Below are positions 9,036-59,134 of a stretch of DNA of 64,000 nucleotides, piece by piece; the first letter of the stretch is position 1; each line of letters opens with the position of its first letter. The position numbers and the translations under genes are program-made. The stretch comes from Tortispora ganteri (Eukaryota): contig PPNB01000006.1 in the NCBI GenBank assembly GCA_003707115.1, forward strand, positions 62,001-126,000. Direction: 5' to 3'. A model generated the notes under the pieces. The model was not told the DNA's origin. It searched no databases and saw only the letters and a program-made list of their open reading frames with translations.

Positions 9036-11282
9036 ATGGCGCCAAAAAGCAAAACCGTTACAAAAAACACTAAACATAACGCGAAAAAGGAGTTGCGAGA
9101 AAAAGAGCTGAAGGTGCTTGCTGATCTCAAACAACGGGCAGCCGAGCTCGATGATACTTCTATTGAAAAGTTCAGTGATTTGCCAATATCTGAGCCAACG
9201 GCTTCGGGTCTTGCTAAGCAAGCGTTTACAGAAATGACTGAAATTCAAAGGAAATCAATCCCGTTAGCCTTGAAAGGCAGAGACATTCTCGGAGCTGCGA
9301 GAACGGGTTCTGGTAAAACTCTAGCATTTTTGATCCCACTTCTAGAGAAACTTGTGCACGAACAATGGACCCCAAATGATGGTCTAGGTGCACTGGTTAT
9401 CTCTCCAACGAGAGAATTGGCTGTACAAATATTCGATGTGCTTAGATCGATTGGCAAGTTTCACACGTTCTCTGCGGGCCTGGCAATCGGCGGAAAGAAC
9501 GTTCACGAAGAAATCTCAAGGGTGGGTCGTATGAACATCATGATTTGCACACCTGGAAGAATTCTGCAGTTACTAGATCAAGCTGTTGATTTTGATACTT
9601 CAAATCTTAAAATGCTTGTGCTAGATGAAGCAGATCGCATTTTGGACATGGGCTTCAAAGGTACAATGGATGCTATCTTAGAACATCTACCGAAAGATCG
9701 ACAAACTATGCTCTTCTCAGCTACACAGACGAAAAAACTATCAGATCTTGCTAGACTTAGCTTGAATGAACCTGAATATATATCCATTCACGATTCTACA
9801 GTGTATAGCATACCAGAATCTCTGATGCAACATTACATAGTTAGCCCGCTGCCTGACAAACTATCTATTCTTTACTCATTCTTGCGCACACATCTCAAAT
9901 CAAAAATAATTGTATTTTTCTCTTCCGGGAAGCAAGTGCGGTTCGCATTCGAGGCCTTTCGTCATATTCGTCCAGGTATACCGCTGGCACATTTACATGG
10001 CAGACAAAAGCAGACGACAAGAATAGAAACAGTCACCCAGTTCTCTAATGCAAAGTACTCCTGCCTTTTCGCTACTGATATCGTTGCTCGTGGACTCGAT
10101 TTCCCTTCTGTAGACTGGGTCATACAGGTCGACGCGCCTGAAGATGTGCCTACATATGTTCATCGAGTAGGCAGAACTGCTAGGTTTGACAAGGACGGTC
10201 ACGCTCTATTGTTTCTGACGCCAAGCGAGGAAACCCCCATGATAGAAAAACTTGAAGCAAAGAAAATACACGTCGAAAACCTCAAAATTCGCGAATCAAT
10301 GAAGCAGAGCATCAAAAAACAGCTACAAGGGCTCTGTTTTAAGGACACTGAAATCAAGTATCTGGCGCAGAAAGCATTCATCTCCTACGTTAGGTCAGTG
10401 TATCTGCAGCACGATAAAGACATTTTCAAATTCGACTCTATACCATTGGAAGAATACGCAGAAAGTCTTGGACTTCCTGGTGCGCCTAAAGTGAAGCTAC
10501 AAGGAGGTGCAAGTTTGAAGGAACGAAAGAATATTTCACGCCAACTTGCCCATGTAGCAGACGACGGAGAACAGAAGACGCAAGACGCTCCAAAGACAAA
10601 ATACGATAGAATGTTCAGCAGGGTTAACCAGGACATTCTGTCTGAGCACTACAACAAAGTAATTGAGCAAGAAGACCCGTCTGACAGTGAGGACATTCTA
10701 CAACCGAAAAATCAGAACAGCTACTTAGATAAAGAAGATTCTGAGCCGGCTAATATTGTCTCTAAACGGCAACTAAAGGCCGCCACCTCCAAGAAGCAGA
10801 TGTTAAAATACAAAGAAAGGCCTACAAAGCTGGTATTCGACGACGAAGGTAATGCCCATTCATTGTATGAGTTCCAGAAAGAGGAGGATTTTCTGAAAGA
10901 GGGCAAGCCAAAAGAACAAATTGACCGGTTCATCGAGGCAGAAAAGAAAGTCATGGATGATGCTGATTCTCAGGATAAAGAGATAGCGCGGGAGAAACGT
11001 TTAGCGAAGAAGAGGAAGAGAAGAGAAGCGGCTGAGAGCGCTAACAGATACGAAGAGGATGCGGAAGAAGAAGATGTCATTCCGTTTGAACAGGATGAAG
11101 ATCTGCTTGCAGAATTGAATAGGCAGATGGAGAGTTATGGAGAAGAGAAGAGAGAAAAGCGCGTCAAGATCGATTATCGTCGGAATAAGAATGAGCGTCA
11201 AAGTGCTAACGATAGCGACGCAGAGAGTTACAGCTCTTTGGAAGACCTTGAGGCGCTGACTGCGAAGCTGATCGAGGGCTAA
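9036..11282 (+). CDS. DBP4: DEAD-box RNA helicase Dbp4/Hca4 (DDX10), 40S biogenesis
   Basis: ARTGSGKTLAF, DEADRILDMGF, HRVGRTAR, KAFISYVRSVY...SLGLPGAP and KTKYDRMF. Confidence 0.95.
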   Translation: MAPKSKTVTKNTKHNAKKELREKELKVLADLKQRAAELDDTSIEKFSDLPISEPTASGLAKQAFTEMTEIQRKSIPLALKGRDILGAARTGSGKTLAFLIPLLEKLVHEQWTPNDGLGALVISPTRELAVQIFDVLRSIGKFHTFSAGLAIGGKNVHEEISRVGRMNIMICTPGRILQLLDQAVDFDTSNLKMLVLDEADRILDMGFKGTMDAILEHLPKDRQTMLFSATQTKKLSDLARLSLNEPEYISIHDSTVYSIPESLMQHYIVSPLPDKLSILYSFLRTHLKSKIIVFFSSGKQVRFAFEAFRHIRPGIPLAHLHGRQKQTTRIETVTQFSNAKYSCLFATDIVARGLDFPSVDWVIQVDAPEDVPTYVHRVGRTARFDKDGHALLFLTPSEETPMIEKLEAKKIHVENLKIRESMKQSIKKQLQGLCFKDTEIKYLAQKAFISYVRSVYLQHDKDIFKFDSIPLEEYAESLGLPGAPKVKLQGGASLKERKNISRQLAHVADDGEQKTQDAPKTKYDRMFSRVNQDILSEHYNKVIEQEDPSDSEDILQPKNQNSYLDKEDSEPANIVSKRQLKAATSKKQMLKYKERPTKLVFDDEGNAHSLYEFQKEEDFLKEGKPKEQIDRFIEAEKKVMDDADSQDKEIAREKRLAKKRKRREAAESANRYEEDAEEEDVIPFEQDEDLLAELNRQMESYGEEKREKRVKIDYRRNKNERQSANDSDAESYSSLEDLEALTAKLIEG

Positions 11283-16238: not shown

Positions 16239-16310
16239 CTTCGGTACCGGGAATCGAACCCGGATCTGCCCGGTGAAAGCGGACCGTGCTAGCCGTTACA
16301 CTATACCGAA
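16239..16310 (-). tRNA. tRNA-Glu (anticodon TTC), intronless
   Basis: Minus strand TTCGGTATAGTGTAACGGCTAGCACGGTCCGCTTTCACCGGGCAGATCCGGGTTCGATTCCCGGTACCGAAG: 7-bp acceptor stem, A box, CTTTCAC loop, GTTCGA B box, and a T-run terminator at ~16228-16233. Confidence 0.96.
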
Positions 16311-41175: not shown

Positions 41176-42241
41176 TAGATAATGTAATATCAGTGTTTCC
41201 CAGTCTGAAAAGTAAAATGGGCTGTCTATATGTACTCCTACTATCCGATAACGCGCTTACCCCACATGAAACTACCGCTGATAGCGCGCGCCCCGTTACG
41301 CAATGTCCATATCTCCCATATATATCCTCCTCCTCTCATTGGTTGATTATCAGTAAAAATAGGTTTCCGATACGATGAGTCATTATTGGCTTAAACTAAT
41401 CAGTTATCCCAACACACCTGCAGATGTTAAGACAAACTGACTTCTATAAACCTGTCGAATTCTTTTTAGCAATAAGGGTAAATAATTAGTTGTCTAAGGT
41501 TTATGCTTACTTCTCAGCAGATACCTGAAAACAAACAGTTAGTTCCATCGACTTGCACCTTGGAAAAAAGGTCAGGTCGGATTCTTCAACAGGTTTGTCT
41601 TCCTGACTCATTGATATGGGGTTGTATAATCAGTTGAGCTACTTGGAAATCGATCTAATTCAATGAAAAATACCAAGCGCATTATGGAGATGCTTCTTTC
41701 TAAATGCCGCTGAGCAGGAGCTTGCTTACCTATTGGTTTAACACGTCCTTAATCGATGCACCAAGTGCCCATCTCAGCGCCACACATAACATTTGTAACT
41801 CATACTAATTGAACTAATGATGACCCTTAATATGCTCCTATAATTAAAAAAAAATGATGTGTACCGAATACTTAAATAAGTTTCATATAGTCTTGTGCCA
41901 AACACCGTAAAAAAGCCGTAGTTATACAAATCTAACAAAACGCCAATCAACGGATGCCTACAATATCCATTTGTTCAGTGGACCGAAGAAAAAATCTTGC
42001 TTACTTTACCGTCAGTAACAATCACTGGTTGAGATTGTATCTAGCACTAAAACATGGTAAAATAATCAAATTGTTGCAGGTAAATTGCCTTACCACGTGC
42101 ATGAATCACCGCAATATCAGTGAAGTCATGTGGCGTGTGCAAAAGTATACAATCTCATATAGCTCAATAATCTCTAATCAACGCTGGAAGGTTTACCATA
42201 TTTATATCCATCATTTTACTTATTGAGCTTTCATAATGTCC

Positions 42242-42594
42242 TTCCGATAATCAAAGAGCGCCACTTTGTATACGCAAATCTGTTTCACAATAGTAGCCAT
42301 GTTCATGAAAATTATAGTACGCCACATAGAAATTACATTTAGACGAATTTCCCTGATATTCCCAGTCATACTATTAATAATTACTTGGCCAGACATTACT
42401 TGCTTTTTTTCCTTATAAGGGCAATATAATACACATGCATACACTGAATTCTTAACAGCCCATAATAATGCTAGTTAACAAACCGCCACACTTTTACTAT
42501 AATTTGCCACCATTGCTTACTACCGCCCTGTTGTTGCTAGACATAGTCTATTTTTATTTAGCCGTTACACTAATAACATCCATGGCTCAATAAA
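42242..42594 (+). repeat. Diverged direct repeat, copy 1 (~355 bp)
   Basis: Collinear blocks shared with 42711-43064: AGCGCCAC, TAGCCAT..CATGAAAAT, AATTACA.TTAGACGA, ACATTACTTGCT, GCATACACTGAA, ACCGCCAC, CCATTGCTT, TTATTTAGCCG and ATGGCTCAAT. Confidence 0.9.
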
Positions 42595-42710
42595 ATTTTA
42601 TAATGATTGAGCTATTTTTTTAATGATTTTACTCGAAAGCTTTAGAATAGTCATTGAATGCGTGCATGGTTTTAATCTACCGCTATGAACTGTGCTATTA
42701 TTTTATTTTC

Positions 42711-43064
42711 CTCCAATTATCAAAAAGCGCCACCTTATATACAAAAAGTCCGATTAATAATGATAGCCATCTCCATGAAAATCTGAACGGTGCACATAGG
42801 AATTACAGTTAGACGATTCTCTCTGAATTCTCAGTCTCCATACTATCAGAGAAATTACCGGACGAAACATTACTTGCTCTGCTCCTTATATGAACATTAG
42901 AATACACGCGCATACACTGAAGCCCTAGGTCAACGGTAATAATAATAAAATTATCTACCGCCACTTGAGTACTAGATTTGGCCATTGCTTGCTACCCGAT
43001 TTTCGCTAGGAATACAAGACCCTTATTTAGCCGGTACACGAATAGCATCTATGGCTCAATGAAA
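42711..43064 (+). repeat. Diverged direct repeat, copy 2 (offset ~469 bp)
   Basis: Same ordered blocks as copy 1, with substitutions and small indels. Confidence 0.9.
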
Positions 43065-43404
43065 GCCAAAATAAGTTGTATATACTATAAAATCATTTCT
43101 TAGAACACGAATAATACTATCTATCTCCAGGGACGTGTTGATTATGACGGTCGATCATATGGTTTTGTGCAAAGAAATCGCTAAACCATGTTTAAGAGGG
43201 AGGATTCCCCCGCAGCTAATTTAAACCAAAACAACCCCCCCAGCACCTGCCCTATCGCAACTATCAAACCTCATTCCGTCTATGAATTATACAAATTTGT
43301 TTCTGAGATGAAATCTGCTCTTTTTTCAAGTTCTAGTATCTCCCTATAGTAATTGTTACATATAGCGGAGCAAATTTAGTTGTCCTGTAAAAGACTGCAC
43401 GCGC

Positions 43405-43441
43405 TTATTATTAATTATTAATATTATTATTATTAATATTA
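43405..43441. repeat. Pure A/T low-complexity (TAT/ATT)-type tract
   Basis: ttattattaattattaatattattattattaatatta read directly. Confidence 0.8.
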
Positions 43442-46400
43442 GTATTACTGGAAATAAAATACGCTATTTCTACTAATGCTACATTGTAATGTAACAGCGT
43501 CTACTTTGGCGCTATAACGATTTTCTGGACCTTGCTTATGAGTTTTATTTTCGGTTATTGGTTCTTTGCCGCTAGTCATCTGAGTTAATTGATGCAACAT
43601 AAAAACAAATATACCCGCTAAGCGGCATACCTGTTATATTGTCGACGCCATAATAATATTAATATGGCACTCTGAAATATACATTCTATGGGAATGTGTT
43701 ATTATTATGGCAGAAGCTTATATTTCACTATACAGTAGTGAGAAGCTATGGACCAAACTGATCTAAGCTGTTCACTGCTTTGATCTAAATCCAGATAAGC
43801 TTTATATTTTCTACATAAACTATAGAGAATATGTATTCAATGGGTTTATATGAAACTTCGCAGGAGAATCATTAAGAATTATCTCATATAGCAGCATTCA
43901 CTTCTCTCTGGAAAGAACCTTAATAGCTAGTTCGACAGTTTCCGTTTAGCTTATTATACAGCCTGCACTATATGACGTTTACTAGATCTCGATCCAGATA
44001 GCTAATAGCCTACTAGTGAGGACAAACTCTCGATACTAGCGTACTTTTCAGTGCTTTATCTACAAGCGACTTAAGTGGCGTACTAAAATTTATTTAATCA
44101 CAAATATCAGGCCTAGATGTTGTTCTGGTCAAAACTTTTATACTACTTATCCGCAACATTTGCCACTTCATTACCAGTATAAAAAATTATCATTTGCCAA
44201 CCACATAGCGTTGATGAGACTCATAGTAGATTTTCTTAAGTCTGATGCCAGTTTTATTAAACTACATGCACTTTCCGCGGTAAAAAAAAATCTGGAGTAT
44301 TCCATTAGATTGTGGAGATCTGCTTCCCTCGGATCATGGAGAAAACAACTAGCGTCCAGTGCATTCTACACTCATCAAGGGGTGCTGTTCCGTAGTTTCG
44401 GTGAGTACGCAGGCATCGTGGCGATACCTAATTTCATTAGGATTATACTCTAAAATGAAGTAATGTCCATACTTCACCGAAATCTTGAATCATGCATAAC
44501 GTTGATGTGAAGTGTTAAAAGCTCATAAAAACTGTAGTCTTCATTCTCTTCCATCGCAACCCGAGCATAGCCTAATAAATTTTCACTGCGAACATGTTTA
44601 AACTACTATTAATCAAAAAGTAACATAAAGGCACTCTACATTATTAATTCATAATAGAGTAGACATTCTCTCAATGTACTCTTGGCTACTTCCACTGGCT
44701 TCTTTCCATGCTGTCCGTAAACCCCACTTGACTAGCGAAGAATACCAAAATGAAAGCCATCTATCCCCTTTGAAACACGATACAAGGACCCCTCCGGCTT
44801 GTCTAGTTAATTACTTGCATTTGAGCAGGTCGATCCCACCGCAAGCTGACGAATAAGTTGCAGGAAAATGGTAATAAATCCACGATAATTAATGAGCTTC
44901 ATTATGCAATGGTGTCATTTTATAATATCGCTCTTTTTAATATACGTATTCCACGTCTATAAAGTGGCCTCGTTAGTCTTATCGAATTTCAATATAATCT
45001 ACATCGGAAATATAACCCTTAAAGAAACTATGACAGGCAATTCTAGAAAGGACGTTACTTTAATGACTGTTCACAGCTTTTTTTCTCGTTGAAGTTATAG
45101 GTAGGAACGAGTACTTCTCTATAACTCAATCTGAATATAGAAAAAATCCTAGTAGACTAGGGCAAAAAATATATGAGTTTCTTATTCTTATAGCACGCCG
45201 ATCTTAAGTATTATATTAAACCATAGGACGCCACATGAAACCCAAACTATCACAAAATCGCCCATTTATAAATATATGTTAATTATTTAACCACAATAAA
45301 TAGAACTCCACTTTCTACAGCTAATTCCTGCCACTCGCCATTATAATTTGCTGTATTCACTATGACCCTTTCGTAATATAATTCAATTTATCTTGCGTTG
45401 GAAAAAGCCAATCTAACGGGGAACTAATATATATCATGTAGGGAAGCATAATTACGCCTTGTTATCATTTTTCGCATGGAGACAAGCAACTGACAACATC
45501 TGCGATATACTGAAATAGCTCTACATACTCTACCTTTTTTCTCTTCTCAAACAAATTATGTAAGACTTCTTTCAGGTTTCAATAAAACACCCTGCCAATA
45601 CAGTAGATATTCCGAGTAATTCTCTGAATTATGAACTCACAGCTTTAACCATATGAACCTCTGAGCGCTAACAGAAACTAAAAAATTGTTGTCAAAGTTA
45701 TTATGCTATTTTATTCATACCGGTCACTATGTGGCGTATCCGCATATCCTCTCAATAGTTGGGACAAAGCACCCACCTGTTATATTGTGAAACTGACGAA
45801 GCGAACGACCAAAACAATCATAAACCGCAACTTGCAGTTATTATACTATAATATAATTAAAATTTGTGATCTATGATAATATCCCAATCCGCATAATCAA
45901 ACATCAATTTCAATAATGAAACGCTAGAAGATTTCCTGAGCTAACTAAAATGTTACTTCGTTGATAGTGGCAACAGGCTATCAGAACCTAGCATAGTGAT
46001 ATGGCGGCAGGCTGTGGTCGTGTGGCGTAGTGAGATTGCTCCGAAATGCTGATAAACAGAGTGTTAGAAGTGGCAAGTAGCAACCTCAGCGGTATTGCAG
46101 TGTTCGATGCCCTTGCGGAGTTATAAGCATCATATAGTGAAGTTTTGCTATTTTTACATATGAATTTGATTCAATTCCGGGAAGTATGAGAGAATACGCA
46201 CAATTAGTGAAAGAGGCCTTCTAGAACCCGACGTGATTAGGAAAAAGAAAAGTAAATGGAACACAAGCATAACATGTTCACTCAAAGCCAAGGTCATTAG
46301 GGAAGAATATATGACAATGTTATATACTTTTGTTTCTACAAATGACCTGCTAGATTCAGCATTCAGTGAAACTGACTGATTACCAAATCTTTTCAACAAT

Positions 46401-47313
46401 AGAATAATTATCGAGCTTGGTAACAATACTATTCGACGTTTGAAAGCGTGGATGCGTGGATGAAACTTCGCCTATGACTGCAGTATCGACTATAAGACTC
46501 TAAATCTCGAGTGACTCACTAGTGTGTACATGGCGAACTATGAGTATTTCACAGGGAGTCTAAGCATGGCTATTGTAGCCTAATTCTTTTTAATAACTCG
46601 GTTGATTGATCCAATTTATGACCATGTTCGTTCGCTGAACAATGCTTTTCAAGTTTGGCAGAAAAGATGCTCCGGACCTTTGCTTAACGGACTTGGCAAC
46701 GTGTATTCCATGGGCTGTTCCAGTAGATAATGCAGTGCAGCACGCAATTATTGATTCCTTTACTCAGGACTGTCTTTAAATCGCTCATCGTAAGTGCTCG
46801 TAACATATTGAATTCAATAATCTACTACTGTATTACCAGCAGCAGGTCCTTTAGTTATGTGTTGTCCATCCTGTAGAGTATTTCTACTAGCAAAAACCTT
46901 CAGGTATTTCGCCACTGAATGGATTCCAAAGTTGTGACGCCTCTTTCGCCACAGTAGTGTGACATGTGGCAAACCACGGACTGGACACCCAGATAGTTAT
47001 ATAGTCCACGTTTGCGATAGGAGTGTGGCGAATGGCAAAGCAATGGCAAGATTCACAGTATTGTACTTTCAACTATAGATAGCGCTGAACATTCAGGACG
47101 TAAGAATGCGTTCCAGAAGGTCAAAGAATCGTATAGAATGCATCATTTACTCAGTCTAGTTCTGATACAATGTACTCCCGATTACAACCTGGAAGATTCA
47201 TTTTTTGTGTGAAAACAATGTATGTTGCTCTGAGTAGATTACGGCATACGCAATACATTAGACCATTATGACCAGATACAGACATGTAGCTGATTAAAAT
47301 GCTTTCCTGTTTC

Positions 47314-48093
47314 CTAAGGAAGATCAACACTTGCCGTTAGCCTACGCGCGTTTTGGAGTAAGCGTACTATCAGCGGACAATCACTAACAATTTTCATAGG
47401 CCCGGTAGTCCAATGTATCGATTGTCTTCTTTCGCATTCACTGATACCAGTGTTTTGCCACGTATTAATATGGGTTGAAGGCGTATGCGGCGCAGCGCGT
47501 TGGTACGGACTCGCGCCTTTTTTCATTAAGTAAGCGACTATGGCGTATCAAAAGAAACTCCAGTAACTAGAGAATAAATTCCTACTTCGTTGGTGATGCT
47601 CTCTAACGCTATTATGATCTTCCAAGAAGGGTGTTCGTGGTCTCACCTTCATTGATTTCATCTCATGCAACATCACCATTTCGGACTCCTCACAAAGTCC
47701 GTATTCACGAGCAATATCATACTTGATATATGCTTTTGACAGGTCCAGCCATTTATGGCCAGACTGATCAATAAACTCTTCTGGAAACGTCCTAAGATAA
47801 TTTTTGTTTTCGATGTTCTCAGTTGGCTGAGATCTCCCGGATACGATAAATAATCGTGGTTCAGTAGGGGGAGATGAAGTAGTACATTTAGAGCGCGCTG
47901 CCTTCGAAAAGTCATTGACAGCATGGCTGTTGCTGATGTCGCATGAAATATTATATTCAAATACGACTAAGGCTGTACGACAATTAAATCTCCTTTGCAT
48001 TTTACGGTGAGGTATGCCAGCATCCCTAGAGTTAGAACATATAGAGGAGTAAGTTTGCTTTTGTATATCTTCCTCCATTAATACTAGTTGCAC
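47314..48093 (-). pseudogene. Possible decayed ORF: a single ~260-codon frame with one internal TGA
   Basis: Track ORFs 47548-48093 and 47314-47526 share a frame and are separated only by TGA at 47548-47550. No recognisable motif. Confidence 0.3.
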
Positions 48094-49223
48094 GTAGTGT
48101 CGCCAGTATCTTTATTCCGAGTCTGGCTGCTCACCTTATAGTAATTTGAAAGTACCTTGCAGTGGCACAATACGAAACTTTGATAATAGTCGGACAGAAG
48201 AGACTCTTTCCTTTTCAGCGACAATCTTCTAAGCTACTATTAGAGGGATCTTCAGTAAGAGACCATATGTACTGGTAAAAGTGAACAGGCTGCTGCTAAC
48301 CCTAAAATTGCTATTCAACGGTCTCTTGAATGTCCGAGTATTCTGATACTTAGAGGGAGCTCATCACTTAATATCAGTTTATCTAATTGTCCCGATTTCT
48401 TTTAAGTAATAGATCCTTAGATCTACTCATAAGGCAATCTGCTAGTTAGAAAACACCGGAATAATTTTCGAATCATTTGTTTAGTCCTTGGCACTACCAG
48501 ATAAAGAGCTTAATGACCAGCCCCTTTGCTGGAGCCGTCTCTCCGAACTCCTGCATGGGTTCGCAGAGTTAATGGGTTCATCACCACGGCAGAAACCGAT
48601 GAGGAATGAGTCGCGTAGATTGTCTGACCCACCGGCGTACTGTGGACTTAATCCGTAATAATGGTGTGAGTCACTGAGCACATCGAACACCCCAGTCATA
48701 GCTGTTTTACCTTATAAGCGGTTCTTAACTGTTAGAAGAGTGATATGCCTAGTGTACTAAGGAACGATGTCATCAATTCACAATAGATAGCATCTGTCTA
48801 TGTCTCGGGTGCAACTGCGAGCTGGCACTATACCGTGTGTGATAAATTTTTATGAGAAAATAACTTACTATGCATGCTAGCAATTTATTTATAAGGGCTA
48901 GTGCCCTTTATTCGGTGCATGACGCTCTATGTGAGCCATGAGAAGTGCTACACGTTCTATAAATTATTAACGCATTGCTGCGTGCGCTAAGTGCAATAGG
49001 TACATATAATACAAAGTGCCTTAATCTTAACTGAAGTTTAGTACAAAGCGAATGGTCGCGTCATCTAACCGGATTAATGTGCTTCCTTCGAACTTTTTCT
49101 CCTTCTTAGCAACGGTCCAGCCAGTAAAGAATTACTCATCATCAAACAAAGTAACACTGAACAGCATTTAATTGAATTCGCTGCCAAGAATATACATTTT
49201 ATGTTAAATTTCTAAGCTATTGA

Positions 49224-50276
49224 ATGTTGAAGGCAGTTTTTATATCTAGACACTGTTCTAGAATTGATGCGGAAGATCCTACGTGGAAGGATACAGCTGT
49301 TACACCGTACGATCCGCCCCTTAGCGCTCGTGGTTTTAGTGAGGCTAAAGAGCTAGGAATAAGAGTGAAGCAGGCAATGCATGACTGCGGTGGATCAAAA
49401 CTCAACATACATAGCTCTCCATTTCTCAGATGCATTCAAACTGCTAGTGAAATTGCTAAAGTTGTTGACAATGTGGAATTAAGTATTGACTGCAGCTTAG
49501 GTGAATGGATCACGTCAGACTATTTTACTCATATAACGCCTCCTCCCGAAGATAATCATAGATCTATAGTTGAAACTGCACATCGATACTTGAATAATTC
49601 TACTACACCCGGTGTTAATAACAGAGATGCGTGGAAGTTTGGTAAAGGGGGAGAATACGATGAAGAGTGGTCAGAGATGAATGAACGAGCTCGCAAAGCC
49701 TTGGGATGTATTATAGAAGAGACTCGAATGCGAACTATTAAGCAAGAATCAGCTGATGGGAAAATATTAAGTGATGAGGTGATTTTAATAGTTTCGCATG
49801 GCGCAATCTGTAATTCGCTTATTGGTGGATTAAGTAACAGACCTACGCTGATCAACATTTCTGTAGGATCGTTGTCAATAGCATTGCCGCTCGAAGAAAA
49901 GCCTGCGGTGGACTCTACGTCACAAAGTCTTATTGACCGTATTGGTCACTGGAAGCTGTCTCAGATTGGTGATATGCGCCGGACTAGCAAAAGTGAGAGT
50001 TCTGACGAAGAGGATGTTGCATTGTGGAATTCATCTCCGAGAGAAATGTCAACTGCAAGATCGATACTGTCGCGATCCGGCTCTATTATCACTGATTTTA
50101 ATCATATAAGGTCTAGATCTCGGAGTAAAAGCCGACTACATATGTTGGTTAATGAGGGCACCAAAACGCAGTCTGGGTCTTTGTGGAAACCTCAAGAAGA
50201 TCTCTCAAACAAGTCGGAAGCCACGGGTGAGTTTAGTGAACCAAAGATATGGAACGAGAGCCAAAAACTGGAATAA
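49224..50276 (+). CDS. Histidine phosphatase / phosphoglycerate mutase family protein
   Basis: RHxxR (RHCSR), TPYDPPLS..G, HSSPFLRCIQTA, LGEW and LIVSHG. Confidence 0.85.
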   Translation: MLKAVFISRHCSRIDAEDPTWKDTAVTPYDPPLSARGFSEAKELGIRVKQAMHDCGGSKLNIHSSPFLRCIQTASEIAKVVDNVELSIDCSLGEWITSDYFTHITPPPEDNHRSIVETAHRYLNNSTTPGVNNRDAWKFGKGGEYDEEWSEMNERARKALGCIIEETRMRTIKQESADGKILSDEVILIVSHGAICNSLIGGLSNRPTLINISVGSLSIALPLEEKPAVDSTSQSLIDRIGHWKLSQIGDMRRTSKSESSDEEDVALWNSSPREMSTARSILSRSGSIITDFNHIRSRSRSKSRLHMLVNEGTKTQSGSLWKPQEDLSNKSEATGEFSEPKIWNESQKLE

Positions 50277-50474
50277 TAACAATAGCTGTACTAATTAATA
50301 ATGATCCCTTATTAATGACGTTATATAAATACTATGGAGGCACACTAGCACCAGTTAGTTGAGATAATAGCAATGCTTTTTCTTCGTCTTAACCACCGTC
50401 GTGCTTTCCTCCTAACAGCGGTTGATAACTCTTGATCTTCGACAACAACTTCGACCCTACCCCAATTAATAATT

Positions 50475-50786
50475 ATGAAAACATCTGCACCTGAATTAAA
50501 GAAGGTAAGTTCGCCTTAGAAATACCTGTGAATCTAATTTGCTGAAAACAGAAAAAGCATTAAGGAACCAGACTAACGTATATAGTATTTAGATAAACAG
50601 CTGATTGTTCAGCTGAACAGCGAAAGAGAAATAATTGGAGTCCTGAAAGGGTATGACGTGTTTTTGAATCTTGTATTAGATGAAGTTGTTGAATCGAAAA
50701 AGGATGGCGAAAGACTTTCAATCGGAACTGCCATTATACGCGGCAATTCGATAATTACGATTGAAGCTTTAGACAATACCCAATGA
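50475..50786 (+). CDS. SMX2: Sm protein G (76 aa); exons 50475-50504 and 50586-50786, intron 50505-50585; absent from the ORF track
   Basis: Spliced product MKTSAPELKKYLDKQLIVQLNSEREIIGVLKGYDVFLNLVLDEVVE...IGTAIIRGNSIITIEALDNTQ carries Sm1 and Sm2 motifs. Intron reads GTAAGT...ACTAAC GTATATAG. Confidence 0.94.
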
Positions 50787-51508
50787 ATTTCATAATATTC
50801 CGTAACAGAAGCGTATTCAGGTCTTTTCAGTTGACCAGGTTTAATAAAATTGCGTCTATTAACTTTTCTATGGCGACGTTATTGTTAAAAAAGAAACAAA
50901 AGCAGAATTACAAACAAACGGATGCTGATACGCCGAAGTTGACCATAGACGATTTTTTTGACGTGGAAAATTTTCGATCTGACTACGAATCTGTGATCAA
51001 AGACTTCAAGAATGACCTATTAAATTATAGAAGGCCTATCAGCATAATCATGGAAAAAATTCTCCAAACTCCGGTTCCTTACCCGAATGGAGAGCGTTGT
51101 TCAGTATATGCCACAGTAGCCAAGAGAGGCCCGAGAATGCTCAGCATAGGTGTATACAATGCTCGCGACATGGATAAGATAACGAGCTCCATTCAGGCTG
51201 CTCTTGGTTTGACTCCTCAAAGAGCCAAAAATGTCCCTCAACTGTTGCTTGTAGAGCTGCCACCTTTAACTAAAGAGGATAAGGATAAGAAATTAAAGCA
51301 ATATAATGAAGCCTTTGAACGAAGGCGGAATGGCGCTACCAATTCTTTGGCGTCTATCAGAGAAAAGGCGTTAAAACCTTTGAAGGGGTTAAAAGGTGTT
51401 TCTAAAGACGAGTTAAAGGCTACGCAAGATAAAATCGAAAAAATTCATAAAGCATATACTCAAGAGCTGCGCGATGAGCTGGATAAAGCCAAAGCAGCCA
51501 CCGCTTAG
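50783..51508 (+). CDS. RRF1: Mitochondrial ribosome recycling factor
   Basis: Basic, acid-free presequence; ATVAKRGPRML.I.VY, GLTPQ, ELPPLTKE and SKDE...QDKIEKIHK. Confidence 0.82.
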   Translation: MNFIIFRNRSVFRSFQLTRFNKIASINFSMATLLLKKKQKQNYKQTDADTPKLTIDDFFDVENFRSDYESVIKDFKNDLLNYRRPISIIMEKILQTPVPYPNGERCSVYATVAKRGPRMLSIGVYNARDMDKITSSIQAALGLTPQRAKNVPQLLLVELPPLTKEDKDKKLKQYNEAFERRRNGATNSLASIREKALKPLKGLKGVSKDELKATQDKIEKIHKAYTQELRDELDKAKAATA

Positions 51509-51550: not shown

Positions 51551-52531
51551 TTAGACGTTTGTCCTAATATAGTCAGCAATCTGAACCTTCGTCATTGTAG
51601 AGAAGCTATGGTTTTTCAACAAAGCTTTGCACAGCGTTTCCGAACCTTCTAGCTTAGGCAGATCTAATTCACCATTGATACATTTTCTTATAACCAAATC
51701 CCTGAACTTAGCTAAAGACTCTGCATCCTTCAGTTGGCAAGAAGCTGTTCGGAGCATTTGTAGAGCATGCTCTTCACCGATACTCAAATGATTATGTCCT
51801 ATTTGAGGTGTAATGTCAATAGCAAAATCAGGTTTATGTTCAGCAGAAGAAGAGGCAACTTCTGCTAGTTTTTTTGTGAAATTTTCAAGGTACCTTAGAC
51901 CATCACCTTGCAGAGTGCCAGCTCTAGGTAGTTGAGAATGGACAATTACTCCATCCGCAGCGGTTTTACGCCTATTGTTGGACTTCTTTGTAGCTGCGAC
52001 AGCCAACCTCCCTGTTTTCTTCCTATTTGTAGGCTGGTTAGCTCTCATAGTCGGCTTTCTTCTTCCCTGTTGATTTAAAGGAATTTCTATTGAGATATCT
52101 TCCAAATCAATATCCATATTTTTGGTATTTTTGGTTCTTGTATGAGAACCATTCGAAGCATGAGCTTGAGACGAAGTCTGCTTACTCAAAAGTTCAATTT
52201 GCTTATCGATGAGAGAATCAGAATGACCGGTTCCCTTCGGCCTAAAAATTCTTTTGCTGCTTTGAGGACCCATTCTTTCTCTTCGAATATTTGAGCTGGA
52301 TTTGACAGATTTTGAGGGTACGTTGCCAGAGTTCGGTGTGGTATTAATAGAATTTTTACTCTGCTGCCGTAAACGTTCGAACAGTGACGGTTTGTCTCGA
52401 GTAGCAGGAGAGGGCTTTTTTGAAAGATTAGATAAAGTATCCTGCAAGCTCGAAGGATTTAATTTAATCATGCTCGAACTGCTAGAAGGCGTCGCTTTTG
52501 ACAAATATCGTACATGTTTTAATCTATACAT
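51551..52531 (-). CDS. Hypothetical protein, probably mitochondrial (the ORF extends to ATG 52702)
   Basis: Long ORF. MYRLKHVRYLSK... at 52531 looks like a presequence, followed by a basic low-complexity middle and a helical C-terminus. Confidence 0.6.
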   Translation of the reverse strand: MYRLKHVRYLSKATPSSSSSMIKLNPSSLQDTLSNLSKKPSPATRDKPSLFERLRQQSKNSINTTPNSGNVPSKSVKSSSNIRRERMGPQSSKRIFRPKGTGHSDSLIDKQIELLSKQTSSQAHASNGSHTRTKNTKNMDIDLEDISIEIPLNQQGRRKPTMRANQPTNRKKTGRLAVAATKKSNNRRKTAADGVIVHSQLPRAGTLQGDGLRYLENFTKKLAEVASSSAEHKPDFAIDITPQIGHNHLSIGEEHALQMLRTASCQLKDAESLAKFRDLVIRKCINGELDLPKLEGSETLCKALLKNHSFSTMTKVQIADYIRTNV

Positions 52532-52736
52532 GATTGGATAGTAATGGTAAGGTCGGAAGTTTGGGAGAAACCTACGTTTACTCACCGGGAATGGATATAG
52601 TGCATGCGCTTTTATAAGAGCATGGCGGGCCAACTTTCGTACGATTCTAATGCCGCATTGCAATATATGTAGTAAAATTATTTCGTAATCTGAGTTGTCC
52701 ATTTGATTAACTTATGTACCTGACTAAAACAGAGAT

Positions 52737-53312
52737 TCATTCGATGCTGTTATAAGTCATCTTCTTAGAACTTTGAAATTTGTTGATAGTGGCTTTAATG
52801 AGCTCATTTATTTGCATTTGCAACACCCGATCCTGGTCAATGAGCTTGTCGATAATTTTTGATTCTGATTCGACAACTCGTAATCTTCTGTCATGTGTAT
52901 CCTTAGATGCATCGATTATATCTCTCAGGGAATCTAACCAACCTTTAGAGCCCTTAGGCTTTAGCTGATTTTGACTCTGGTGCTGATAAGTAAGATGTTT
53001 AACAAGATCTTTGTCTATTCTTGAAAGTTGCGATAATTCCCAATTGTCGGAAGAGCCACTGTCATTAATATCGCTCAAAAACAAGTGCGCGTCGCTAATA
53101 TTACTCGTTGCAACTGGGCTTGTCGAATTTAATGGTATTTTGTTCACATCATCTAAAGGCATGTCCGTTTTCGCCCCATTCGTTGCGACCCTTCCCCGGT
53201 TTTCATTTCTGGATTTTTTATTCACCTTATACGATGTCGAAGTATTTAGGTTTGTTTTCTTTCTAGGTCTGGATACTTTTATTGGCCCTTCATCGCTAGA
53301 ATCTGAAGACAT
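52737..53312 (-). CDS. Hypothetical protein with basic NLS-like segment and C-terminal coiled coil
   Basis: 191-aa ORF filling the gap between neighbours; RPRKK; heptad-like C-terminus. Confidence 0.6.
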   Translation of the reverse strand: MSSDSSDEGPIKVSRPRKKTNLNTSTSYKVNKKSRNENRGRVATNGAKTDMPLDDVNKIPLNSTSPVATSNISDAHLFLSDINDSGSSDNWELSQLSRIDKDLVKHLTYQHQSQNQLKPKGSKGWLDSLRDIIDASKDTHDRRLRVVESESKIIDKLIDQDRVLQMQINELIKATINKFQSSKKMTYNSIE

Positions 53313-56128: not shown

Positions 56129-58987
56129 TCATGAAGTGATCCCTAGTTCTTTGAATGCTTCGAGAACCTCCTCATCTAGGTACTTCGCAATATTTGGCTC
56201 AACCGATAACCCCTTTCTTTTTCTTGTTTTTAGCAGAAAATCTCGAGCTAGATCTGTTCCTTCAGCTACCTCTAAGTCTCCAACAATTGAATCTTTGTCA
56301 AGAGGATCACCGGGAACAACATCCCATTTTTCAAATACCAGCACCACCGAAGCCTGCCCTTGTGTTGCAACTCTCACATCTATCTCAAATCCAAATGAGT
56401 CTATCACAGGTATATGCACGTTAAAATAGTAAAGTTGTGTACCTGGAATAGGGCGTTTCTGAATGATCATACCTCGTCGCTTATTGATGATCTTTCTCAA
56501 TGGTAACTCCATGTCTTCCGGCCCATTGATATGGCCAGAGTATATTGGTTCTAACAACGCAGGTGTAGCCATTAGGAAAGCTATATACGCGACTCGTCTC
56601 GATGTCGGTATAATTTGGCCTCCATTTCTTGACGGTGCATTATCTGATATTTCCGCATTGGTTAGTTTAAACCGAACATTTCGAAGAGGTTCCTCAACTA
56701 AAGGTCCTTCCAATGTCGCCCACTGAAATCCTTGTTGTATATATTCTCTGCATGTCTCCAATAACTTCTTATTGACTCCTTCAATCTCTAAGGTGTCATC
56801 TTGCAGTATATTTGGTCCATATGTGCCTGGCCCAAAAGCCCAAATGGATCTCGCTGCTAAAACATCCCATCCGTACTGTTCTTGAAAATGTTTGGCTAAG
56901 ACCTTGCTCGTCCAAGATGCATCGATTACATGATTTTCAATGTCATTCACAATGACAGGTTCAAGAGGTTCTGCAATCATAGTCAATTTATTCTGCCCGT
57001 TTGGTGAAATGGCATAACATTGTAGTGCAGATCTATCTAACACAGTCTCAGCAAATCTTGTGGCGGGATCAGACACCTTTATATCGATTTTAGCGTGTAT
57101 TTTCCTTAGACTATATAGAACACAATCCATGTAAAGTTCTCCTGATCCAAGAAGTATGTGCTCTCCAGACTCTTCAACTCTAGTTTGAAGACTAGGAAAC
57201 GTTCGGTTTAAGTCGCGAAGCCCTTCAATCATTTTCGGTAATTCGCTCAGATTCACAGGCTCCACCGAAACTTTTACAACCGGCTCATTTATAAACTCCA
57301 GCGGTTTGAATCCAAATATTTCATCACTCCAATCAGCAGAGATTATAGTGCAGCTTTTATTAATTGTAGAGACAAAGCTGCCGCTTAAGAGTATTAAACA
57401 TCCTGGCCCAGCTCTATCCAGAGGTATTTTATATCGGCTTCCAGCCAAAAAGATCTCGTCGACACTGTAATCCACCGTATCTTCTAAGTCTAACTCAGTC
57501 ATATCCTCGCTAACAAGTTTGACTTTCATGTTTCTGGTGACTTCGCCGCTGAATATTCTACCTAAGCCTAGAAATATAGATGTATTATCCAGACAGACAC
57601 GAGTAACATGAACAACTAGGGGTCCTTGTGAATCTAGATCAATGATAGATTCAGTCAACTTTGAAGTCGCTGGCCCTTGGAAAAGGCGCTGAGTTCTTTC
57701 CTTGACAACTTTGGGAAGAGTAGGAATACTTTTAGCTATAGCGTCAACTAGTCCAGTGGATTCACCAAAAAATTCAGAGCAAACTATTTTCAGAAGCGGT
57801 TTGGCATCTAGTTTTAGCTGAACCGGAGAAATATGTATATTGAGAGATTCGAGCACAGTTAGCAACCTTGTTGGAGTTTCTGATATGACAGCAATAAACA
57901 GTTTATACACTGGCTCGAGCACAAAACTTGTGAACGCTCTAGGTAATACCCCATTGAATGGTACAAATTTTTGGGCTTGCGGGTCGTATGATATATCACC
58001 CCAGAGGCGCTCCGACAAAAATTCAGTATCTATTTCTATAGGGTAGTTAGATGCATATTGGCTCAAAGTAAATGACCAATGGTACTTAGCCGACGCAAAA
58101 ACGACATTGCCAGCTTGAGGTGACAGTATAGGAGCGTTGGTGTATAAAGATTGAATAATTCCATTTGCTGAATCAATTAAGTATTTTAGTTTATCATAAG
58201 CGTCGGAAGGGGGTATACGTAATTCTGTAATGAGTCGATCCAATTTATTAATGATCAGAACAATAGGAAGATTTCGTCTCGCAGCAAGTCGAATAATCGG
58301 GTAAGTTGATGGTTGCAAACCAGTAATCGTGTCGATTACTAGCACAATTCCATCACATAGTTCCATAGCGCATGCAGTTTGATCATAAAAATCAGGATGC
58401 CCTGGAGTGTCTATTAGATTAATAACATGCGACTTTCCTTTGCTGTTTGGAAGCAACAAAGTGATTGGATTCGCATTAATTGTGAGACCACGATCGCGTT
58501 CATATTGATGAATGTCAGTATACCTGAGTTGCTCATCTTGTCTCTTACCTATAAACAACGGAAAATCATGGGTCTGATAAACAAGCGAGTCAATTAGAGA
58601 TGTTTTACCCGATCTGAAATCACCAACAACAGCAACTGTACGAGACCATTCTGGGAAAGGCAAATTGTCTATCAGAAATTGTTTGGCGTAATATGTCTCG
58701 GGTACCTGGGATTCTTCCAGATTAAAATTATTGCGTACCTTTGGATTCACTATTGGCTCATCTATGTTTCGGGTGTCTTCTGTTTTATGCAGAACTTGAA
58801 CATCGCTACCAAAAACTTCATGCGAATCAGGGTAGTATTGTTTATCTTCGTGAAGCACTACAGCCTGTTCCCGCTGGTCATCCTGATCCATATAATTATC
58901 GGACAGCTCATTTACAGAAATAGACGCGGATTCAGAGGTGCTCTCTGCTTCTATCAGATTACCAAATTCGTCATATTCATCATTCAT
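56129..58987 (-). CDS. SNU114: U5 snRNP GTPase Snu114 (EFTUD2)
   Basis: YDEFGN, VVLHEDKQYYP, GKTS, DTPGH, NKLD, WDVLAARSIWAFGP and ARDFLLKTRKRKGL. Confidence 0.96.
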   Translation of the reverse strand: MNDEYDEFGNLIEAESTSESASISVNELSDNYMDQDDQREQAVVLHEDKQYYPDSHEVFGSDVQVLHKTEDTRNIDEPIVNPKVRNNFNLEESQVPETYYAKQFLIDNLPFPEWSRTVAVVGDFRSGKTSLIDSLVYQTHDFPLFIGKRQDEQLRYTDIHQYERDRGLTINANPITLLLPNSKGKSHVINLIDTPGHPDFYDQTACAMELCDGIVLVIDTITGLQPSTYPIIRLAARRNLPIVLIINKLDRLITELRIPPSDAYDKLKYLIDSANGIIQSLYTNAPILSPQAGNVVFASAKYHWSFTLSQYASNYPIEIDTEFLSERLWGDISYDPQAQKFVPFNGVLPRAFTSFVLEPVYKLFIAVISETPTRLLTVLESLNIHISPVQLKLDAKPLLKIVCSEFFGESTGLVDAIAKSIPTLPKVVKERTQRLFQGPATSKLTESIIDLDSQGPLVVHVTRVCLDNTSIFLGLGRIFSGEVTRNMKVKLVSEDMTELDLEDTVDYSVDEIFLAGSRYKIPLDRAGPGCLILLSGSFVSTINKSCTIISADWSDEIFGFKPLEFINEPVVKVSVEPVNLSELPKMIEGLRDLNRTFPSLQTRVEESGEHILLGSGELYMDCVLYSLRKIHAKIDIKVSDPATRFAETVLDRSALQCYAISPNGQNKLTMIAEPLEPVIVNDIENHVIDASWTSKVLAKHFQEQYGWDVLAARSIWAFGPGTYGPNILQDDTLEIEGVNKKLLETCREYIQQGFQWATLEGPLVEEPLRNVRFKLTNAEISDNAPSRNGGQIIPTSRRVAYIAFLMATPALLEPIYSGHINGPEDMELPLRKIINKRRGMIIQKRPIPGTQLYYFNVHIPVIDSFGFEIDVRVATQGQASVVLVFEKWDVVPGDPLDKDSIVGDLEVAEGTDLARDFLLKTRKRKGLSVEPNIAKYLDEEVLEAFKELGITS

Positions 58988-59134
58988 GGTATGGTATCAG
59001 CGGTGTAATAAATAGAGTTCTTCTGATACAGAGCCTCGGGAGAAAAAAGTAACTGTTGTCCCTCGGGACAGTTGACTAACTCCAGCCTGATTTCCTTCAT
59101 AGCGACTCATTCCCCCTTCTTCCTGGCAAATACA

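Follow-up and report, generated by a model that had tools for sequence, protein, structure and literature searches.

In Tortispora ganteri, the gene for the spliceosomal core protein SmG and the gene for the mitochondrial ribosome recycling factor RRF1 lie on the same strand and share four nucleotides, such that the start codon of RRF1 (ATG at 50783) overlaps the stop codon of SmG (TGA at 50784-50786) within the sequence ATGA (50783..50786, forward strand). This overlap is real: it had been proposed in a first-pass annotation of the 64-kb window (the whole stretch of DNA analysed here) and is borne out by the sequence together with the spliced frame of SmG. As members of known families both genes are ordinary, and the proteins that they encode are normal; the part that is missing is the intergenic spacer, and what is new is the overlapping arrangement of the two genes in a compact genome. 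The overlap is unusual for its neighbourhood; any translational coupling across it is hypothetical. That annotation had offered two mechanisms, either a bicistronic mRNA with termination-reinitiation or an RRF1 promoter inside SmG with the SmG 3' UTR inside RRF1. The evidence leans to the latter, and we are inclined to favour two separately transcribed, overlapping genes, where RRF1 transcripts would start within the last ~75 nt of SmG. In the literature outside subscription journals and supplements, no paper was found that deals with the SmG-RRF1 pair or with nuclear genes of yeasts overlapping by ATGA.

The upstream partner is encoded by two exons on the forward strand. SmG exon 1 (50475..50504, +) consists of 10 codons (30 nt) and has an A at position -3 of its start codon. 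The intron of 81 nt (50505..50585, +) has a GTAAGT donor, an ACTAAC branch site at 50572 and an AG acceptor; it also contains an A5 tract (50552) and, overlapping the acceptor, a TATATA at 50579. Exon 2 (50586..50786, +) carries the LSM domain (PF01423, E 9.9e-20), contains three out-of-frame ATGs (50653, 50680 and 50704) and is 95% identical to ODV92376.1 of Tortispora caseinolytica. The spliced product has 76 aa, and SmG matches a protein named snRNP G at 63%. SmG is of ordinary length, its C-terminal part from the conserved RGN onwards having 15 residues as compared to 14-29 in 35 readable loci, and no longer or fused SmG forms were present among 121 candidates, which is weak evidence.

The downstream partner, RRF1 (50783..51508, +), is an ORF of 241 aa which matches the RRF domain (PF01765, E 3.5e-21) and has best homologs that are named mitochondrial RRF; the identities first assigned to both genes are supported. 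With no open RRF1 frame before 50765, the ATG at 50783 is the first one available, and the next in-frame ATG (Met30) is at 50870..50872 (+). In an alignment of homologs, the Met30 column lies inside the consensus RxFSxSxxxLKKK, which marks the end of the family presequence. All 28 full-length homologs have further residues in front of this column (17-52, median 32) and none has a Met there. The alignment comprises 29 of 87 matches, picked mainly for their reach towards the N-terminus and thus favouring full-length models, and the truncated RRF1 model of T. caseinolytica was left out of the count of 28; the location of Met30 within the motif is independent of which homologs were chosen. The N-terminus is basic and acid-free and ends in the F-S...KKK motif of the family, with the Arg two residues before the Phe, common in homologs, replaced by Ile. 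The presequence region (residues 1-36; 50783..50890, +) has 4 Arg, 2 Lys and no Asp or Glu, and is encoded by AT-rich DNA that resembles a 3' flank. The assignment of 50783 as the start of RRF1, made earlier from the composition of the N-terminus, is thus well supported by comparison with homologs.

The closest named relative is T. caseinolytica, with an RRF1 that is 90% identical over 189 residues. Its SmG and RRF1 are ODV92376.1 and ODV92377.1, and as these accessions are consecutive, the adjacency looks conserved; the accession numbers, on which this point rests, suggest the same order on the T. caseinolytica scaffold. The SmG of this species ends in the same residues as that of T. ganteri. 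Its RRF1 model starts at the position of residue 53, so lacking the first 52 residues and the presequence, and such a truncation is what would be expected from a gene caller that avoids overlaps. The ODV92376.1 model is also partial, and both records probably need re-annotation. A metagenome scan with RRF1 yielded no relative, and one with the SmG alignment yielded 46 loci, of which those with a readable SmG end are from other lineages. None of the 46 had a match to the RRF profile, but at least 1000 nt of downstream sequence was present in only 26 of them. The pairing is therefore unsupported outside Tortispora and appears to be lineage-restricted, as judged from a thin sample of distant lineages with no budding-yeast DNA in it. 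Exact look-up of six proteins from the window, both RRF1 forms included, found none of them in the collection.

The description of the locus as “operon-like” was too strong, as ATGA is a common stop context, ending 6 of the window's 35 annotated genes, and none of the known stop-restart elements was detected. At the other five ATGA stops, the ATG opens only 4-20 codons; the longest of these follows the ORF 52737-53312 (-), which has no Pfam match and, with a tandem neighbour downstream, ends in an ATGA that opens 20 codons. In the metagenome SmG loci, ATGA occurs at 10 of 35 readable stops and opens 13-84 codons. By itself, ATGA is weak evidence for coupling.

The spacing is more informative. 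With the first ATG of each ORF taken as the start, the nine tandem pairs of the window have gaps of 1081, 938, 318, 291, 287, 238, 198, 34 and -4 nt, so that the -4 gap is an outlier and not the tail of many near-zero gaps, albeit in a small sample of nine pairs. The 34-nt gap involves the ORF 51551-52702 (-), which has no Pfam match and a first ATG 34 nt from the upstream gene. Its true start is probably Met58 (52531), where a presequence-like stretch follows and TATA-like words precede, and the gap would then probably become 205 nt. A tRNA-Glu(TTC) at 16239-16310 (-) in the SYF1-SURF4 gap explains part of that long tandem distance. If a start were drawn at random within 100 nt after the stop, the overlapping ATG would be picked ~7% of the time, and the exact -4 spacing therefore favours coupling several-fold. 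We put the likelihood ratio for coupling at roughly 5, against a low prior, both figures being our own estimates.

In the reading that we favour, SmG would be driven by its own promoter, with a TATA-like word at 50322, 153 nt upstream of the gene, and its transcript would be spliced. Polyadenylation may occur inside the presequence-coding region of RRF1, near AATAAA (50843..50848, +), a candidate positioning signal located 57 nt after the SmG stop and within the RRF1 coding sequence. A capped RRF1 mRNA would begin in SmG exon 2 at a point beyond 50704, the last internal AUG, and ordinary scanning would lead to its translation from 50783. Intergenic DNA may have been lost, or recruited as presequence-coding DNA, with the RRF1 ATG supplied free by the A that precedes the TGA stop.

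We favour overlapping mRNAs because ordinary machinery suffices, the 5' end of RRF1 is 3'-flank-like, and precedents exist. Overlapping transcription units are described for the compacted genomes of the microsporidia Encephalitozoon cuniculi and Antonospora locustae (PMC3629993), poly(A) sites within downstream coding regions for S. cerevisiae (10.1101/2022.11.02.514956), and expression mostly as single-gene mRNAs for yeasts with a captured operon (10.1101/399394). The likeness to the microsporidia, as they are presented in PMC3629993, is that a promoter or terminator is pushed into the coding DNA of the neighbour. T. ganteri differs from them in that it is a free-living yeast in which the coding sequences themselves overlap, and its transcript ends are putative; most of its remaining tandem gaps fall at about 200-320 nt.

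The resemblance to a 3' flank was scored against the 35 annotated genes with first-ATG starts, using flank and promoter models trained on about 30 genes; ARF, URA7, ERG10, RRM and VMA8, with their doubtful starts, were excluded from the promoter model. Over its first 120 coding nt, RRF1 has the highest AT content of the 35 genes (0.68, tied with HAT1), and the 3'-flank score of its first 100 nt is above that of 33/33, 32/33 and 26/33 other coding starts when di-, tri- and tetranucleotides are used, respectively. AATAAA occurs in 1/33 other coding starts as compared to 4/34 3' flanks. The tetranucleotide score of the 100 nt after the SmG stop is nevertheless below that of 33 of 34 true 3' flanks. 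These 100 nt lack TATA, which is present after 27 of the 34 other stops, and also lack TATATA, TATGTA and TACATA; given the absence of TATA-type words, SmG termination may be weak. F, Y, I, N and K, the residues whose codons are AT-rich, make up a fraction of 0.54 of the RRF1 presequence, the highest of the 29 aligned sequences (median 0.185). The AT-rich 5' end could be a relic of an intergenic origin and be without a present role.

As to the promoter, an RRF1-only mRNA should start after 50706 because of the three internal AUGs in SmG, and the ATG positions leave an AUG-free stretch of 76 nt (50707..50782, +) as its putative start zone. At word lengths 2, 3 and 4, respectively, 23, 29 and 28 of the 29 true upstream regions have a higher promoter score than the 100 nt before the RRF1 ATG; among coding ends this stretch is unremarkable and mid-range, and the score is confounded by the fact that the DNA encodes SmG. 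The sole TATA-like word within SmG is the one that coincides in part with the intron acceptor (50579), 5' of all three internal AUGs. The modelled evidence for an RRF1 promoter inside SmG is thus neutral to negative. Divergent gaps of 130-168 nt indicate that small promoters are possible in this genome, although two of these three gaps involve doubtful first ATGs. SNU114 and ERG10 are divergent with a very short gap (58987-59085), and a candidate 37-nt intron near the ERG10 start (59049-59085) would leave about 60 nt between their start codons. Points counted against overlapping mRNAs include the non-promoter-like upstream region, the lack of TATA after the stop, the ~7% spacing, and a C at -3 of the RRF1 start.

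If overlapping mRNAs are the correct explanation, the locus would represent extreme genome compaction in a free-living yeast, with about 75 nt of SmG coding sequence doubling as promoter and about 100 nt of presequence DNA as terminator. Overlaps also produce truncated gene models, an example being the T. caseinolytica RRF1 record without its presequence.

The main competitor, which we regard as a tentative and rather unlikely possibility, is a bicistronic mRNA with coupled termination and reinitiation. Readthrough of a weak SmG poly(A) site would extend the transcript to the RRF1 terminator, and ribosomes ending SmG at the UGA might conceivably restart at the overlapping AUG, so that RRF1 output would be a few percent of that of SmG. 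The improbable spacing and its outlier status among the nine tandem gaps speak for this mechanism, as do the lack of a TATA word after the SmG stop and the poor promoter character of the DNA before RRF1. The apparently kept adjacency in T. caseinolytica, with an identical SmG end and an RRF1 model that may have been cut to avoid an overlap, points in the same direction. Against reinitiation stand the 3'-flank-like 5' region of RRF1 with its AATAAA and the fact that the two products share no function. A bicistron would also carry 720 nt after the SmG stop, for which nonsense-mediated decay would be expected. Overlapping monocistronic mRNAs can coexist with reinitiation on a readthrough mRNA.

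The AUGA geometry is exactly that described for victoriviruses, which use fungal cytosolic ribosomes: in HvV190S, ORF2 is likewise in the -1 frame, and the AUGA has a pseudoknot directly upstream (PMC6631646). SmG and RRF1 differ as a nuclear, spliced and capped pair with a hypothetical bicistronic mRNA, and no H-type pseudoknot directly upstream of their AUGA is supported. A stop/start overlap after a long ORF is also described for the TURBS of caliciviruses and influenza B and for the cellular CASQ2 and GAD mRNAs, with a UGGGA core in caliciviruses (PMC5972666). SmG is unlike these in having no UGGGA core (none occurs in 50475-50800) and no Asp-rich C-terminus of the kind found in CASQ2. Engineered constructs are reported in which fungal ribosomes can reinitiate downstream of a long ORF (PMC10352335, PMC11952965), and readthrough transcripts are reported to be common in mushroom fungi (PMC4503453). 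The polycistronic units of Agaricomycetes (PMC4503453) and IGG1/IGG6 of Glarea (PMC10352335) resemble our locus as tandem fungal genes with a possible shared readthrough transcript. They differ in having a spacer, which averages 364 nt in Agaricomycetes and is 9 nt long for IGG6, the latter being described as working by reinitiation (PMC10352335); SmG and RRF1 have none.

A search for structure near the SmG stop gave a mixed result. In the 50 nt before the stop, the first window tried, the pseudoknot score was 19 and unremarkable, with 7 of the 35 genes scoring higher. When the window was widened post hoc to 80 nt, a crude stem and pseudoknot score ranked first among the 35 genes, with 2.6% and 1.0% of 1000 synonymous shuffles doing as well. 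The predicted hairpin (50717..50765, +) has an outer stem of 8 bp (50717-50724 with 50758-50765) that ends 18 nt before the stop, and six inner pairs of this stem have pairing probabilities of 0.96-0.97. The crossing stem needed for a pseudoknot has a pairing probability of 0.01 in the nested model. Energy tests, which count against reinitiation, gave nothing: folding energy near the stop had a z of -0.37 to -0.92 against dinucleotide shuffles and ranked 26, 11 and 26 of 35 against synonymous shuffles, the hairpin being no more stable than its synonymous controls. We thus consider the predicted structure a post hoc lead only. In these models, no well-supported pseudoknot was found upstream of the stop, and no known stop-restart element at the locus; Rfam and tRNA searches had no match there either. 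The strongest 3' coding fold of the 35 genes occurs elsewhere, at the end of a DBP4-like helicase gene (11184-11282, +), where the last 60-99 coding nt have a z of -2.5 to -3.6 against synonymous shuffles.

Were reinitiation to operate, one spliced mRNA would yield a core protein of the spliceosome and also a translation factor imported into mitochondria, by an AUGA stop-restart that dispenses with any known viral element, an outcome that we consider doubtful but not far-fetched. It would be a native yeast case of reinitiation after a long ORF, unreported according to a 2025 paper, and would provide a small natural cassette for two-gene expression. A native nuclear bicistron, maintained in two or more species of the Tortispora type, would also give victorivirus reinitiation a natural counterpart in the host, and this compact lineage may then hold more such pairs, truncated by gene callers.

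An absence of functional overlap, with RRF1 starting at Met30 (50870), 83 nt past the SmG stop, or further downstream, is improbable. The gap of 83 nt would leave some room for a promoter, and the database model of T. caseinolytica begins even later. However, the position of Met30 within the presequence motif and the extension of every full-length homolog beyond it argue against this start, the product of which would have almost no targeting peptide. It would also ignore 29 open codons upstream that specify 4 Arg, 1 Lys and no Asp or Glu. A start at 50870 (MATLL), named in the first-pass annotation as the finding that would overturn the overlap, has become unlikely in the light of the homolog alignment and the presequence motif, and we reject it as the main start of RRF1.

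Leaky scanning on a bicistronic mRNA, in the style of green algae, is very unlikely. As in the algal loci, a short first ORF is closely followed by a longer one, here with no spacer, and five of the features tested are dispensable for a low output. In the algal bicistrons, the start is described as weak for the first ORF and strong for the second, with AUGs scarce ahead of ORF2 (PMC11892635), whereas the contexts are reversed in our pair, with A at -3 in SmG and C at -3 in RRF1. Internal out-of-frame AUGs are not depleted in SmG (3 observed, where synonymous codon use predicts 2.42), and those at 50653 and 50704 have an A at -3.

We give as little credence to alternative splicing from a single promoter, by which SmG exon 1 would be joined in frame to an acceptor CAG (50828-50830) in the RRF1 presequence. 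This CAG is pyrimidine-rich and coincides with a codon boundary that matches the phase of the 30-nt exon 1. However, the interval from the SmG stop to this CAG contains no CTAAC or CTGAC branch site, CTAAC being seen in each of the SmG, URA7, ERG10, ARF and VMA8 introns, and the open, presequence-like codons 1-16 of RRF1 would be left unexplained. A programmed -1 frameshift producing an SmG-RRF1 fusion was rejected, as the spliced SmG coding sequence has no slippery heptamer and a fusion would bury the presequence.

Gene orientation mostly alternates in the window, the 34 gene pairs being 13 convergent, 12 divergent and 9 tandem. Gaps of the 13 convergent pairs range over 36-207 nt, and with the smallest at 36-57 nt, overlap of neighbouring 3' UTRs is probably frequent. 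In this otherwise gene-dense window, a region of about 8 kb (41256-49224) has no Pfam-matched ORF among those scanned; GC is 0.34-0.38 over 41500-46000, and the region is possibly a regional centromere or a degenerate element.
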